From positions 1,098 to 65,097 of the forward strand of contig DASVRL010000422.1 of NCBI GenBank assembly GCA_036388635.1: DNA of 64,000 bases. Reading direction: 5' to 3'. Each line of letters starts with the position of its first letter. Positions within the stretch are counted from its first letter, which is position 1. A program made the position numbers and the translations under genes. Of this stretch, positions 12,943 through 18,936 are shown one piece after another. The notes below the pieces were generated by a model that made no database searches, was not told where the DNA came from, and worked only from the letters and a program-made list of their open reading frames with translations. This DNA is from Pyrinomonadaceae bacterium (GTDB lineage Bacteria; Acidobacteriota; Blastocatellia; Pyrinomonadales; Pyrinomonadaceae).

Positions 12943-14073
12943 ATGCTTTTGTCACGAGTCAAATTCCCGTTTTTCGTTCTCGGATTACTTTTCGTTTTTT
13001 CGACCGGCAGCCTTCAGGCGCAATCCGGAAATACGCGTCAGGCGCAGCCGACGCCGACGCCGCCCGAACAAGTCGAAAGAGTCGAGACGGAAGAAATCCG
13101 GCTCAATATCTCGGCTTTTGACGCCAACGGAAAATTCGTTTCCGACCTGCGCATCGAAGATTTGGTTATCAACGAAGACGGGCGGCTGCACCAGGCGACG
13201 AGCGTCCGCCGGACGCCGGCAAACGTTTTGATTCTGCTGGATGTCGGCAACGAAATCGCGTATGCGAAAAGAAGAGCGGCGACGGCGGCGGCGGCGCGAG
13301 GTCTGGTCGGCGCTCTGCGCGAAACCGATTCGGTCGCCGTTATGCAGTACGGCGATAAAGTGGAAATTTTGTCCGAATGGACGCAGGATAAAACGGCGCT
13401 TTTAAACGCGCTGAACGATAAAAAACTCGGCTACGGCAAACGCTCGGTTTTTAATCAGGCGCTCGCCGCGGCGGTCGATTTTTTCCGAAAAACGCCGCTC
13501 GAAAATCGTCATCTGGTTTTAATTTCCGACGGCGTGGATACTTATAACGATTTGCGCTCAAAGAATCTAGCCATCAAAAATCTGCTCTCGTCCGACATCA
13601 ACGTCCACGTCATCAGCTACACCAAGCTTCAGCAAAATGCGATTACGATGCCGAAAACTCTGAAAGGCGGCGGCGGCAGACCAAAAGCCAATAATCTGCC
13701 GCCGGGCGCGGAAATCCCCATTCACGGCTCGACGCCGACTTATACGATAGCCACGCTTAATCTCGACCGCGAAATGATTCGCAAGCGACAAGAGCAAATC
13801 GCGCAGCTGAAAACCAGCGAAAAGCTTCTGGCGACGATTGCCGAAGACACGAACGGCGAGATTTTTCTGCCGGAAACCGTCGAGGAAATGGTCGATAAAA
13901 CCGCGCAGCTGGCAAAAAATATAGATTCGCAATACGTCGTCACCTACACGCCGAAACGCGCGCTGAACGAAGCCGACGACGGCGAAGTGCGCGTTATCGA
14001 AGTTTCTTCCAGACGCGCCGGAATCGACATTCTCGGTCGCCGAAAGCTGGTCGTCACAAACAATAAAAACTAA
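12943..14073 (+). CDS. secreted VWA-domain protein (acidobacterial VWFA-type architecture)
   Basis: The ATG at 12943 has GAGGA 5 nt upstream. It has a signal peptide. The VWA core shows LILLDVGNE...SVAVMQY...LVLISDG. Confidence 0.75.
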   Translation: MLLSRVKFPFFVLGLLFVFSTGSLQAQSGNTRQAQPTPTPPEQVERVETEEIRLNISAFDANGKFVSDLRIEDLVINEDGRLHQATSVRRTPANVLILLDVGNEIAYAKRRAATAAAARGLVGALRETDSVAVMQYGDKVEILSEWTQDKTALLNALNDKKLGYGKRSVFNQALAAAVDFFRKTPLENRHLVLISDGVDTYNDLRSKNLAIKNLLSSDINVHVISYTKLQQNAITMPKTLKGGGGRPKANNLPPGAEIPIHGSTPTYTIATLNLDREMIRKRQEQIAQLKTSEKLLATIAEDTNGEIFLPETVEEMVDKTAQLAKNIDSQYVVTYTPKRALNEADDGEVRVIEVSSRRAGIDILGRRKLVVTNNKN

Positions 14074-14103
14074 AACCGAACCTTTTCGAACGACGCGAGA
14101 CTG

Positions 14104-14172
14104 ATGATAAAAAAACTCGCCTTCGTTTCAGTTTTAATTTTAACTTTTTATGCCGAGGCGTTTGCTCAGTAA
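14104..14172 (+). pseudogene. orphan signal-peptide stub (remnant of a truncated secreted-protein gene)
   Basis: The ORF reads ATG..TAA and encodes only MIKKLAFVSVLILTFYAEAFAQ. That is a complete Sec signal peptide ending at an AxA-like cleavage site, followed at once by a stop and the start of the AT-rich DNA. Confidence 0.55.
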
Positions 14173-14467
14173 ACTTCTGTGAGATCGCTCATATCTTGAA
14201 AAACGCCTTCTAACAAAATCAACAACTTAGAAATTGAAATTGCGCATAATGTGAAAAAACTGTAGCGCATAAAGTGAAAATTTCTGCTATTTTAAGCGCA
14301 TATATTGAAATTTTCTTTCCAATGAAGTTATCAATTCTAATGGGGGTTTAAATAGATAACTGGTTTAAGTGAGGATGAAATATTTAATTAATTATTAAAA
14401 TAATCTGAAACGGATTATTATTTTTGGAAATAGTTATAATTACTGAGGATGATTCGGTAAACGGTTC

Positions 14468-14498
14468 AAACGAGAGCCAACTATGCTCTCGTTTTTAT
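14468..14498 (+). terminator. plus-strand intrinsic terminator inside the islet
   Basis: The stem is AAACGAGAGC (14468-14477) pairing with GCTCTCGTTT (14485-14494), running into TTTTTATT. No plus-strand ORF of 60 aa or more lies upstream. Confidence 0.6.
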
Positions 14499-14518
14499 TC
14501 ATTGAAATATGCTGTTTG

Positions 14519-14767
14519 TTAAACAACCCGTTTGTTTATTAGAGATTCTCGATAACTTTTTTTAGCATCAGCCACTATTTTTTTGGTAGTTTCGGGAGTT
14601 CCTCTTAGCATAAGACCAAGTTTGTTAGGAAGGTCTACTCCAAAAATGTCGCCTCTATTTATTATCCTTGCTGAGAAGTCGCGCCGATTTTTGCCTATTT
14701 GCACGGAAATTCGAGCATTATTTCCGCCTGCTACTACTTTTATTAATTTTACTCTTTTATAAACCAT
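14519..14767 (-). CDS. 82-aa basic protein, translationally coupled partner of the C39-like peptidase
   Basis: The ATG at 14767 is preceded by GGAGGAGAGG and lies 19 nt inside the upstream ORF. The N-terminus MVYKRVKLIKVVAGG ends in Gly-Gly. The protein is rich in Lys and Arg. Confidence 0.6.
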   Translation of the reverse strand: MVYKRVKLIKVVAGGNNARISVQIGKNRRDFSARIINRGDIFGVDLPNKLGLMLRGTPETTKKIVADAKKSYRESLINKRVV

Positions 14768-15270
14768 CTTAAAATCACCTCTCCTCCCCAATGTTGCTTA
14801 AAATCTTCAAACGTCATTTTATAACTTGTCTGGTCAAAGGGATCTTTGATTTCGATGAAATCATCTTCAGATACGTTTTCTATAATTACTGCGTGTCCTA
14901 AGAAGGACATTGGTTCCAGTAAAATTACACTTATTGGCTTTTGACTTAATACAGCATCAATACATTCTACATCAGCGGTAAATCCTTGCCACTCTTTACC
15001 ATCATCTGTATCCTTATCAAATGTATTCAAACATCGCGCTAAATTAGCGATATATGTCGGCTCACCAATTATAGCACGAATTTTTTCTTGAGATACTGAA
15101 ATTCCTCGTGTCTTTAATAGCATTTCGCCAACTGCTGAAACGCACGAAATGCCAGTTGTTTGCTTAACAATCGTTTCATCAGTTGTTTCTTCATATCTTT
15201 TCCAGCTACCACCTGCTCCACTTTCCATATTTTGAGAATTTTCAAGAATGTCCACATTAGAGCGTTTCAA
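14749..15270 (-). CDS. free-standing papain-fold / peptidase C39-like cysteine peptidase
   Basis: The motifs occur in the order and spacing of C39 domains. They are Q-x5-C (QTTGISCVSAVGEMLL), a His strand (FLGHAVII) and IEIKDPFDQ...FEDFKQHWGGEV. There is no signal peptide or TM helix. Confidence 0.65.
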   Translation of the reverse strand: MKRSNVDILENSQNMESGAGGSWKRYEETTDETIVKQTTGISCVSAVGEMLLKTRGISVSQEKIRAIIGEPTYIANLARCLNTFDKDTDDGKEWQGFTADVECIDAVLSQKPISVILLEPMSFLGHAVIIENVSEDDFIEIKDPFDQTSYKMTFEDFKQHWGGEVILRWFIKE

Positions 15271-15596
15271 ATATTAAAATATCTAGACTGCCTTTACAGT
15301 GATAAAAAGTCAACGGGGACGCTCATATGAGATTTTTGCAGAAAACTACAATTCCAAATTTAGTGTCAATTTCTCAGTTAACACTAAATTTATTTCAAAC
15401 TAACAACCATTCAACTTTTATAATTAAGGTTGGACTTTCAGTAGAAAAAATAATCGACGATGAAATAGAATTATATAAATAGGAAAAATTCCAATATACA
15501 GTATTATATTTCCCATTTTCATTTTATGCCCTAACTAACATACGCGTCCTCTCTGATCTCACAACTTCGCCTAAACCTTACTCCACTAAAATCCGC

Positions 15597-15630
15597 TTGA
15601 CATTTTTTAGAATTAGAATTATTCTAAATC
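15597..15630 (+). promoter_or_regulatory. sigma-70-type promoter with overlapping Fur-family (PerR-like) 7-1-7 operator
   Basis: TTGACA lies at 15597-15602 with a 17-nt spacer to TATTCT at 15620-15625. A perfect palindrome, TTAGAAT-T-ATTCTAA, lies at 15613-15627. An extra TTAGAAT half-site sits at 15607-15613. Confidence 0.7.
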
Positions 15631-15644
15631 TAACTTAGGACACA

Positions 15645-16049
15645 ATGAGCGTATCAGTAAATATAAAAGATTTAGGTTTGACCCGGCAGCGCGAGGTCGT
15701 TTTGCAGGTTATCCGCGCTGCCGAAGAGCATCTGACGGCAAACGAGGTTTTCGACAAAGCCAAGCAGCTTTTGCCGAGCATCAGTTTCGCGACGGTTTAC
15801 AATTCGCTGCGTTATCTGAAAGACGCCGGGCACATCGCGGAAATCAGCTTCGGCAACGGCGCGAGCCGTTTTGATTCGATGACTTCCAGGCACGACCACG
15901 CCATCTGCACCAAATGCGGGAAGCTGGTCGATATGGAAATAGAGCTTCCGCCGGAAGTCGTTAATTTCGCGGCGGAATTTTCCAAATTCAAACTTGAATC
16001 CATCGAATTAACTCTGCGCGGATTATGTCCTAATTGCAGTAATACTTAA
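15645..16049 (+). CDS. Fur-family transcriptional regulator (PerR-like by context)
   Basis: 134 aa with a winged-helix N-terminus. The metal-site motifs are HDHAICTKCGK and CPNC. It lies directly upstream of a peroxiredoxin gene. Confidence 0.85.
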   Translation: MSVSVNIKDLGLTRQREVVLQVIRAAEEHLTANEVFDKAKQLLPSISFATVYNSLRYLKDAGHIAEISFGNGASRFDSMTSRHDHAICTKCGKLVDMEIELPPEVVNFAAEFSKFKLESIELTLRGLCPNCSNT

Positions 16050-17559: not shown

Positions 17560-18936
17560 TTAATCGCAGCTGCAATCGCAGCATCCGTCGCAACCGCAAT
17601 TATCACAACACCCGCTGCAACAATTGCAGCCTTCACAACAGCTGCTACTGCCCTCGCCGCCGCAATCGCAGCAGCAACATTCGCAAGAATCGCACCAACC
17701 TTCACCGCCGCCCGAATCGCCGCTGCTTCCTTTTCTGAGTTTCTTTTTGCGACCTTCTTTGGTTAAAAGCTCTTCGGGATTTTCCATCAAAATCGTTTTT
17801 GGAAAAGCCAGAACCGACCCGAAAATTGCGCCGAGAAACATCAGGTTAAAACTCAAATCAAAACATTCGCGCGCCGATTTTGCATCTTTCGTCTGCGCGG
17901 GCGCAACGAGGGCAAAGGCAAACACGAAAATAAAAACCAGCGGCATCTGCCACGAAAACCCGCCCGCCATTTTGCGCGCCGCTCGCGCCGCGTTTTGCCA
18001 CCTTTCCGAAAAACTTTGTTTACGTCCGGGCGGGCAAGCTTTTTTCGTTTTCAAAACGGGCAAGGATGTTTTCAGTTTTCTTTGCAGATTCTGCTTGAGA
18101 CGCGAGACAAAAAGCGTTTTTTGATTTTCCGCAATTGGTAATTTGTAAATTTCGGCGGTGATTTCGCTTTCCAGTTTCTGCAAAATCGAAATGATTTTTC
18201 GCTTGATTTCAGCCGGAATTTTTTCTTCATCCTGGCGAAACGCGGCGCGAATCGCATTGAATTGTTTGCGCCGGAAATCTTTCTCGTAATCTTCAAAAGC
18301 GTCGAGCAGGTAAATCAATTTTCCGAAGCGAAAACCGATTTCCGCAGCCGAATTTTCAAGCCGGCTTTTGCCGGTTAGCCTCGCGCCTTCGCCGAAAAAA
18401 ATCGCGGTCGCCTCGGCGGTCGGGCGCGAAAGCTCATTTAAAATTTCGCCCGGAGTTTTGTTCGATTGCCGGGAAGCGGTCTCGATTGTTTCCTGAGCGG
18501 ACAAAATTTTCCGAACCGTTTCAAACGGAAATTTCCATTCCTCCAGCTTTCTTTGCGCCTTTTGAAAACTGTTCGAGAAAGTTTTTCGCGCGATTTTGCC
18601 CGCGCGGGAATTTTCATCCGTGATTTTGTCGGCAAGCTTGAATTCGGCGAGGATGAGATTAGCCGTTGCCGCAAATTCGAGCGGCAGAGGCATCTCGTTT
18701 TTCGGCAAACTCAAACAATTGTAAGATTGATAAGCGCTCTGCCAATCCCGTACATTTTCGTCATTGAGACTCGTTAAAAGCTCTGCCAGAAAAACCGTGT
18801 CGTGATTAAGCAGAAATCGCGATTTTTGCCCGTAAAGACTGCCGATGGTCTTGCACGTTCCGCAATAATGAAGCCGCCGGAAATTTTTCTCCGCGTCGGA
18901 CATTCCGCATTTTTTGACCCGCATCAAGCCGAACAT
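17560..18936 (-). CDS. DUF5685-like membrane protein with a hyper-cysteine acidic C-terminal tail
   Basis: The N-terminus MFGLMRVKKCGMSDAEKNFRRLHYCGTCKTIGSLYGQKSR matches the pattern I recall for DUF5685. Two TM helices lie near residues 330-390. The last 45 aa (WCDSCECCCCDCGGEGSSSCCEGCNCCSGCCDNCGCDGCCDCSCD) contain 20 Cys. Confidence 0.7.
   Translation of the reverse strand: MFGLMRVKKCGMSDAEKNFRRLHYCGTCKTIGSLYGQKSRFLLNHDTVFLAELLTSLNDENVRDWQSAYQSYNCLSLPKNEMPLPLEFAATANLILAEFKLADKITDENSRAGKIARKTFSNSFQKAQRKLEEWKFPFETVRKILSAQETIETASRQSNKTPGEILNELSRPTAEATAIFFGEGARLTGKSRLENSAAEIGFRFGKLIYLLDAFEDYEKDFRRKQFNAIRAAFRQDEEKIPAEIKRKIISILQKLESEITAEIYKLPIAENQKTLFVSRLKQNLQRKLKTSLPVLKTKKACPPGRKQSFSERWQNAARAARKMAGGFSWQMPLVFIFVFAFALVAPAQTKDAKSARECFDLSFNLMFLGAIFGSVLAFPKTILMENPEELLTKEGRKKKLRKGSSGDSGGGEGWCDSCECCCCDCGGEGSSSCCEGCNCCSGCCDNCGCDGCCDCSCD

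Follow-up and report, generated by a model that had tools for sequence, protein, structure and literature searches.

A probable detached toxin-immunity cassette of the Cpe1/StbD-CT family of C39 peptidases in a low-GC islet of a Pyrinomonadaceae bacterium

The stretch of DNA analysed here, called the window, comprises 64,000 nucleotides (nt) of contig DASVRL010000422.1 from a Pyrinomonadaceae bacterium (GCA_036388635.1). Two overlapping genes on its minus strand, between 14519 and 15270, encode a free-standing cysteine peptidase of the C39 type and a small basic partner, and very probably form a detached toxin-immunity cassette of the Cpe1/StbD-CT family (Tox-PLC39). The pair is the sole content of a low-GC islet at 14000-15650, delimited by the composition profile and the Pfam domains of the neighbours and without assigned strand. 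The GC content is 30-37% across approximately this interval and about 50% in both flanks, in agreement with the description of the DNA as foreign-looking in the first-pass annotation. A gene encoding a VWA-domain protein is found on one side of the islet and a Fur/AhpC/redoxin cluster on the other.

A survey of 40 proteins distributed over the 64-kb window revealed no phage, type VI secretion system (T6SS), contact-dependent growth inhibition (CDI) or ATP-binding cassette (ABC) exporter genes. The window searches also gave no VgrG, PAAR, Hcp or adaptor genes and no MuF domain, and no genes for ribosomally synthesized and post-translationally modified peptides (RiPPs) adjoin the pair. Comparison of the whole islet with the carrier-fused relatives described below, using blastx, revealed no buried carrier pseudogene, only about 4-12 linker codons 5' of the toxin domain. 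An islet-free allele was sought via the neighbouring Fur protein. The other contigs found in this way were 100% identical across the islet, and the insertion boundaries are therefore not definable. Rfam searches of the islet gave sub-threshold eukaryotic miRNA models alone, which were taken as chance matches, and PHROGs searches gave only insignificant endolysin matches.

The peptidase open reading frame (ORF) at 14749-15270 has a TTG start and a length of 173 amino acids, and the partner ORF at 14519-14767 has an ATG start and a length of 82 amino acids. The TAA stop codon of the former (14749-14751) and the ATG of the latter (14765-14767) result in an overlap of 19 nt. These ORFs and their overlap, the ribosome-binding site GGAGGAGAGG and the low-GC islet were all present as first described. 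The 173 codons exist as an ORF, but the family alignment places the real start of the toxin at the ATG at 15228, which gives a protein of 159 amino acids beginning MESGAGGSW and a toxin gene at 14749-15228 (minus strand). The start annotation is inconsistent across the toxin family. The database entry of the window toxin has 168 amino acids, while public gene calls for the identical gene in other samples of the same species (L068 and L069) start at Met36 and give 124 amino acids, a start that would drop the region of the catalytic Cys. The peptidase is acidic (pI 4.6, net charge -12) and the partner, as stated in the first-pass annotation, strongly basic (pI 11.1, net charge +13). These opposite charges are compatible with a tight complex of toxin and partner.

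The peptidase matched Pfam Peptidase_C39 (PF03412) with 30 bits at a cut-off of 22, and a database search retrieved 88 close homologues of 150-190 amino acids with 38-66% identity. In the family alignment of 41 sequences (A1), His112, Asp129 and the motifs GEML and DQT..Y are invariant, and Gln23, Cys29 and the N-terminal G-A-G-G-N-W (G4, A5, G7) are conserved in at least 90% of the sequences. The presumed oxyanion-hole residue Gln23, in a Q-x5-C arrangement, is encoded at 15160-15162 and the predicted catalytic Cys29 by a TGC codon at 15142-15144, the latter aligning with Cys183 of StbD and Cys362 of Cpe1. The other two predicted catalytic residues are His112 in the GHAV strand (14893-14895), which aligns with StbD His258, and Asp129 in IKDPFDQTSYKM (14842-14844), which aligns with StbD Asp275; all four codons are on the minus strand. 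The AlphaFold2 (AF2) model has a C39 fold with a predicted local distance difference test score (pLDDT) of 91.5. The assignment to the C39 peptidases, made at first from motif order and spacing, is thus borne out by profile, conservation and model.

Within the C39 peptidases the window protein is nearest to antibacterial toxins. A single-sequence phmmer search of the PDB gave StbD-CT (8ssk, 8ssm, 12aj) and Cpe1 (9l5u) with E values of 1.4e-18 to 6.6e-17, and with a profile the two toxins were obtained at 1.5e-30 and 9.5e-29, whereas the PCAT exporter domains reached only about 0.03. The best Foldseek matches of the toxin model were 8ssm_A, 8ssk and 9l5u, with 31-33% identity and template modelling (TM) scores of 0.80-0.92. 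The exporter domains PCAT1, ComA and LahT ranked below the toxins, with about 20% identity and TM scores of about 0.7. These exporter domains share fold, catalytic residues and Pfam family with the window toxin, but they are joined to ABC transporters and act on double-glycine leaders, a context that is absent at the window locus. It is strongly supported that the peptidase is a homologue of the antibacterial C39 toxins StbD-CT and Cpe1 and not an exporter domain. A role in amyloid maturation like that of FapD was considered and rejected, as the NCBIfam FapD match was far below threshold (16.8 bits compared with 330).

StbD-CT of Citrobacter rodentium (8ssk, 8ssm) is a homologous toxin domain (E 1.4e-18, 33% identity, TM 0.80-0.89), and with its immunity protein StbI it resembles the window pair in the positions of Cys, His and Asp, in the N-terminal AGGNW region, in the small immunity gene directly 3' and in fold class. 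It is carried by a CdiA-like protein with a YajC-dependent entry domain, while the window gene has no carrier. Cpe1 of Escherichia coli ATCC 11775 (9l5u), paired with Cpi1, belongs to the same papain-like toxin family (E 6.6e-17, 31% identity, TM 0.80-0.92). Its carrier is a PAAR-like (DUF4150) protein of the T6SS, while the window copy stands alone and has phage MuF proteins as its nearest fused relatives. Both Cpe1 and StbD-CT cleave GyrB and ParE at HAGGK (PMC12136450; bioRxiv 10.64898/2026.05.07.723447). Based on this literature and an identity of 31-33%, the window toxin is inferred to cleave GyrB/ParE at the same motif.

The N-terminal motif G-A-G-G-N/S-W, with the codons for G4-A5-G6-G7 at 15208-15219 (minus strand), was identified by its conservation in A1 and aligns with StbD residues 173-179. 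The window toxin reads MESGAGGSW where StbD reads KGGAGGNW. A motif of the GG/AGGNW type is expected about 22-25 residues ahead of the catalytic Cys and is present there in the window toxin, and in the carrier-fused relatives GAGGNW sits at the domain boundary. StbD-CT cleaves in cis between KGG and AGGNW, with the cut after Gly158, and thereby frees itself from its entry domain (bioRxiv 10.64898/2026.05.07.723447). The GAGGNW motif of the toxin N-terminus matches this auto-processing site in sequence, and the window toxin may be cleaved there as well.

The partner gene (14519-14767, minus strand) overlaps the toxin gene by the 19 nt given above and is a conserved ORF. A word-indexed protein search with the 82 amino acids returned the protein itself alone, and homologues were gathered through the gene neighbourhoods of the toxin and then by profile. 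Every peptidase homologue inspected is followed 3' by a small overlapping ORF of 81-130 amino acids, and in all 32 loci scored its ATG lies 3-21 nt ahead of the end of the toxin ORF. With 88 close homologues, 563 profile matches and a partner overlap in 32/32 loci, the pair has far more support than chance ORFs would have. The mean identity within the partner family is about 28%; immunity proteins usually diverge this fast. Among near relatives, the partner in L001 shares 37% identity and the segment GIFGVEFP..LGLMLR with that of the window.

The AF2 model of the partner (pLDDT 80), built on alignment A3, which is thinner than alignment A2, has strands at residues 6-14, 17-24, 27-38 and 41-45 and helices at 48-54 and 58-80. 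When 350,542 PDB chains were searched with Foldseek, the top four matches were Cpi1 (9l5u_C/D) and StbI (8ssm_C/D), with TM scores of 0.60-0.68 and E values of 0.008-0.03; the best single match was Cpi1 9l5u_C. An hhalign comparison of the partner profile with StbI, whose sequence was taken via an orphan on a Salmonella plasmid (L065), was colinear over 79-81 columns (P 0.003-0.006). The longer members of the partner family have a C-terminal strand motif, [DE]G.K[IV].[FL]P, in common with StbI and Cpi1. Searches of the PDB with phmmer and hmmsearch gave no genuine match, only spurious ones such as Rpl5 and designed proteins. Taken from the predicted structure, the partner is strongly supported as having the fold of the Cpi1/StbI immunity proteins. 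StbI has 95 amino acids, is acidic and contains five strands, while the partner has 82 amino acids, is very basic and contains four strands in the model. The immunity genes of the Cpe1 family encode 79-239 amino acids and are highly divergent (PMC12136450), and in both size range and divergence the window clade is alike.

The 15 residues at the beginning of the partner had been compared with a double-glycine leader, and one of the two first interpretations of the pair was a protease with its dedicated substrate. Under this explanation a C39 maturation peptidase would cut the partner, as substrate or pro-peptide, after Gly-Gly at residues 14-15, in the manner of a bacteriocin or RiPP. C39 enzymes do cut after Gly-Gly, the partner reads VVAGG and carries hydrophobic residues at positions -4 and -7, and the translation of both genes is coupled. 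The segment exists at residues 14-15 as described, but it is not conserved: Gly-Gly occurs in this region in 3/51 partner homologues, and the closest homologue reads KGSGEK instead. In the AF2 model the segment consists of strand 1 and the turn between strands 1 and 2 of a folded domain (pLDDT about 80-87), and the two residues are, according to this model, a hairpin glycine pair and not a leader cleavage site. The partner fold is that of toxin immunity proteins, the enzyme resembles toxins much more closely than it does exporter or leader peptidases, and ABC exporter and RiPP genes are absent from the vicinity, as are ABC exporters beside the homologues inspected. The conserved glycine motif, GAGGNW, is located on the toxin. 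The reading as a double-glycine substrate is unsupported, and a maturation peptidase is considered highly improbable. The other first interpretation, a toxin with its immunity protein, is strongly supported by the homology to StbD-CT and Cpe1, by the Cpi1/StbI fold and by the occurrence of the same domain at the end of MuF, Rhs and CdiA toxins.

The Shine-Dalgarno sequence of the immunity gene, GGAGGAGAGG, is found at 14778-14787 (minus strand), 10 nt ahead of the ATG and inside the codons for the conserved W-G-G-E-V of the toxin. Similar motifs precede 23/29 partner starts but 0/29 starts of standalone toxins. Together with the overlap in all 32 loci this agrees with the coupled translation claimed from the window alone. 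With a Shine-Dalgarno sequence on the immunity gene and none on the toxin gene, an excess of immunity protein should be favoured. A terminator-like hairpin, AAACGAGAGC-N7-GCTCTCGTTT, is located at 14468-14494 (no strand assigned), 25 nt beyond the immunity stop codon. It has one match in the 64-kb window compared with 0.06 expected, and an identical stem is found 3' of the immunity genes of L009, L029 and L033 and 5' of the toxin in L018. The hairpin resembles a terminator carried along with the cassette.

A DNA motif resembling an extended -10 element, TGTTACAAT, was observed 8-9 nt 5' of the ATG of the toxin domain in L001, L002, L009, L013, L016, L018 and L057. Inside the MuF fusion L009 it encodes V-L-Q-S, and the window copy has lost it. 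Possibly it acts as an internal promoter, from which toxin domain and immunity gene would be transcribed without a leader. A near-perfect palindrome, AAATTTAGTGTCAA-N8-TTAACACTAAATTT, is found at 15356-15391 in the window, about 130 nt 5' of the toxin ATG, and could be an operator or a terminator. In the AT-rich non-coding DNA downstream of the cassette, at 14242-14316, three direct repeats GCGCATAA[A/T]GTGAAAA with spacings of 23 and 31 nt could be protein-binding sites.

When 1.84 billion representative proteins were searched with a profile, 563 matches were obtained. Longer proteins, up to 2747 amino acids, occur among the best 150 of the 563, and in these the toxin domain ends few residues from the C-terminus. 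According to Pfam the carriers are Phage_Mu_F proteins (L009, P0090, P0095, P0100), RHS/TcdB/PT-TG proteins (L048, P0121, P0225) and CdiA-like proteins with Fil_haemagg/PT-VENN/DUF637 (P0122, P0137). Of the relatives with a carrier, the MuF fusions are the closest, and L009 is 53% identical to the window toxin. The gene order in L009 is SPP1-type portal, MuF::toxin, immunity, scaffold and capsid. This corresponds to the described MuF phage polymorphic toxins (PMC5576092; PMC3482391), as L009, P0090, P0095 and P0100 end in the toxin domain, with an immunity gene next, in the head module. The window differs in having neither MuF domain nor phage genes, and only relics of the linker are found in the standalone copies. 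A term search of the main text of the MuF paper PMC5576092 gave no mention of C39, papain or Acidobacteria.

The linker relics are found upstream of standalone copies as remnants of the form DFVGWKNDKRFGRSVYRKPL..VLQSKPM. In L009 the sequence ahead of GAGGNW is DFVGWKNDKRFGRSVYRKPLMTVLQSKPMKV and in the standalone P0002 it is MKDFIGWRNDKRFGRSVYRKPLASVLQSKPMQS. Shorter linker pieces are retained in P0040, P0043 and L013, while just a faint trace, VDILENSQNMES ahead of GAGGSW, is left in the window. The standalone form is found mainly in Acidobacteriota, in the Blastocatellia, Pyrinomonadaceae and Chloracidobacterium groups, and one metagenome-assembled genome (MAG) holds four loci, the MuF fusion L009 and the standalone L016, L022 and L025. 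The neighbours of the standalone copies vary by locus and are housekeeping genes.

Among the loci collected, some had unusual arrangements. In a MAG of Proteobacteria (L043, JAJPJO010000070.1, 3-5483) a protein of more than 1826 amino acids combines a Zeta-toxin kinase, an EDR1/CTR1-type peptidase-like domain and a C-terminal C39 toxin, and an immunity-like ORF with two repeats is located 3' of it. Tandem toxin-immunity pairs (160+86 and 150+104 amino acids) are found at 5001-6592 in L006, directly after genes of the pyruvate dehydrogenase type. On a Salmonella plasmid (L065, CP074295.1, 2686-3694) an orphan CdiA-CT fragment is near-identical to the C39 domain of StbD; an unannotated StbI homologue of 95 amino acids is next to it (E 3.7e-52 to 8ssm_C), and both are within an array of small hypothetical genes.

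The absence of a carrier allows for the explanation that the free-standing toxin is active T6SS cargo, loaded non-covalently on Hcp, VgrG or PAAR of a T6SS encoded elsewhere, with the partner as immunity protein. The toxin family would be the one already named, and the sole difference from the favoured explanation is that this copy would be a weapon in active delivery. EvpQ of Edwardsiella piscicida (PMC7991086) is a precedent by description, being a free-standing papain-like protein of 173 amino acids on a low-GC acquired island far from secretion genes, the T6SS by which it is secreted being 513 genes away. Its protease domain is one of the two seeds that define the Cpe1 family (PMC12136450). 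EvpQ is basic (pI 9.3) and secreted by the T6SS into host cells, whereas the window toxin is acidic. The Cpe1 paper (PMC12136450) also reports members of the family whose genes are separate from a nearby carrier, as well as T6SS-associated homologues from Acidobacteriota, and the catalytic triad is intact in standalone copies across about 88 clusters. The family survey of the Cpe1 paper took in T6SS- and CDI-linked genes alone. Against this, the window has none of the T6SS, VgrG, PAAR, Hcp or adaptor genes, the surroundings (10-20 kb) of six further standalone loci contain none of these genes either, and the closest carrier-fused relatives are MuF proteins and not T6SS proteins. T6SS cargo is considered unlikely, although it has a precedent in the family.

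A further explanation is that the toxin is never exported. In a toxin-antitoxin (TA)-like addiction or abortive-infection module, a partner of lower stability would restrain a cytoplasmic protease cleaving gyrase, and the module would stabilise the islet or a plasmid, or kill infected cells. The toxin has no delivery domain or signal sequence, the copies are single and scattered among unrelated housekeeping genes, with several per genome, and gyrase is a classic target of TA toxins (CcdB, FicT). Standalone pairs also occur on plasmids of Gloeothece, namely L066 on pP742404 of Gloeothece citriformis (NC_011732.1, 2980-3794) and L067 (NC_014534.1, 3986-4785). Their toxins have 163 amino acids and their overlapping partners 108 and 103, no carrier is present, and one of the pairs, on a plasmid of 22.6 kb, is flanked by a site-specific integrase and a gene encoding a Toll/interleukin-1 receptor (TIR) domain. 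Such surroundings hint at a function in addiction or defence.

The C-termini of the partners bear on the same explanation. In the homologues sampled from L001-L035 and P0237-P0257, 44/51 partners end in a small-residue tail of the form [ATVIG][AV] (..L-Q-A-A), a pattern found in 11/271 background ORFs. The end is AA in 27/51, the residue at -4 is L, M, I, V or P in 48/51 and Q is found at -3 in 29/51. Synonymous codons vary in the tail, and the constraint thus acts on the protein. StbI and Cpi1 end earlier and have no such tail. The sequence of the tail resembles an ssrA-type degron and also the end of the cleavage product of E. coli GyrB (..V-L-H-A-G); both resemblances are a lead only. The tail could render the immunity protein labile in the manner of an ssrA degron, or it could mimic the GyrB product and dock in the S4-S1 subsites, adding plugging of the active site to the exosite mechanism.

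Several observations speak against a TA-like module. Toxin followed by immunity gene, together with the carrier-fused relatives, is a hallmark of polymorphic toxins. The partner has the Cpi1/StbI fold, and no DNA-binding domain was recognised in it by Pfam or Foldseek. PADLOC gave no match for the gene pair, the window partner ends ..NKRVV (tail at 14519-14530), which is a weak match to the tail pattern, and a strong Shine-Dalgarno sequence on the immunity gene, with none on the toxin gene, fits simple over-production of immunity protein. A TA-like module is therefore a poor candidate, somewhat less probable than T6SS cargo. That the free-standing cassettes in general are addiction or anti-phage modules, controlled through the immunity tail ..L-Q-A-A-COOH, and not weapons, is similarly doubtful.

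Among the three uses, an orphan, immunity-providing cassette derived from MuF prophage toxins is favoured. The cassette reading is based on homology, fold, catalytic residues, coupled pairing, carrier-fused relatives and MuF linker relics, all observed in this study. The toxin of 159 amino acids would act as a C39 papain-fold cysteine peptidase using Gln23, Cys29, His112 and Asp129, and the translationally coupled protein of 82 amino acids would bind the toxin and block substrate engagement. Cpi1 and StbI bind an exosite of the toxin without plugging the active site (PMC12136450; bioRxiv 10.64898/2026.05.07.723447), and by analogy the partner may do the same. In the nearest relatives with a carrier the domain forms the warhead at the C-terminus of MuF head proteins of prophages, more distant relatives have it on Rhs and CdiA proteins, and self-cleavage at GAGGNW would release the warhead from the carrier. 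The absence of a carrier and the position of the 1.6-kb low-GC islet among housekeeping genes together indicate a horizontally acquired, detached cassette. At present the cassette probably serves mainly to protect against incoming toxins of the Cpe1/StbD type, and the window copy possibly also serves as a reserve warhead for recombination.

A number of points weigh against this interpretation. The identity to characterised toxins is just 31-33% and the GyrB/ParE specificity is extrapolated. The second cysteine of StbD, Cys187, which has been discussed for redox control, is Val in the window toxin, and P2 of the site equivalent to the StbD cleavage site is Ser, Val or Ala in the window clade (Ser in the window) and Gly in StbD. 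The toxin ATG has no Shine-Dalgarno sequence, and expression of the toxin is presumed. The partner resembles Cpi1 and StbI at the level of fold alone, at the E values given above and with no similarity at the phmmer level, and its model has four strands compared with five in StbI. The 40 proteins spread over the window include no carrier, T6SS, CDI or phage gene.

In the first-pass annotation the pair was not recognised as a described system, which does not hold. It corresponds to Tox-PLC39 (PMC3482391), to Cpe1-Cpi1 (PMC12136450) and to StbD-CT/StbI (bioRxiv 10.64898/2026.05.07.723447). Tox-PLC39 is a papain-fold domain of the C39/ComA-like type with a C-H-D triad, found at the C-terminus of polymorphic toxins, as is the window family. 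It is listed for Bacteroidetes, Chloroflexi and Firmicutes with delivery by type II secretion (T2SS), T6SS and Photorhabdus virulence cassettes (PVC), and no immunity family is assigned to it (PMC3482391). The window family differs from this listing in being found mostly in Acidobacteriota (Blastocatellia), in having MuF, Rhs and CdiA carriers and in having a defined immunity fold. What is known already is thus Tox-PLC39, Cpe1-Cpi1 and StbD-CT/StbI, with EvpQ as the free-standing precedent. The MuF-carried form, the large expansion of carrier-less copies in Blastocatellia, the shortened four-strand immunity variant and the strongly conserved C-terminal tail go beyond these cited accounts.

One neighbouring gene outside the islet has a separate peculiarity. 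Adjoining the Fur/AhpC/redoxin cluster, a DUF5685 protein of 458 amino acids (17560-18936, minus strand) has an extraordinarily Cys-rich C-terminal tail (..CDSCECCCCDCGGEGSSSCCEGCNCCSGCCDNCGCDGCCDCSCD).

The pair that was flagged as an unrecognised protease and substrate is now explained by a recently characterised family of C39 toxins with cognate immunity proteins, in which DNA gyrase and topoisomerase IV are the enzymes inactivated. The toxin family reaches deep into the Acidobacteriota (Blastocatellia), where the nearest carrier is phage MuF and not a T6SS or CDI protein. Copies that have no carrier but retain decaying relics of the MuF linker are scattered by the dozen through the chromosomes, and the immunity proteins of the clade have a shortened or extended Cpi1/StbI fold with a conserved C-terminal tail. 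If the carrier-less copies were addiction modules, polymorphic toxins and toxin-antitoxin systems would be linked via a new gyrase poison.

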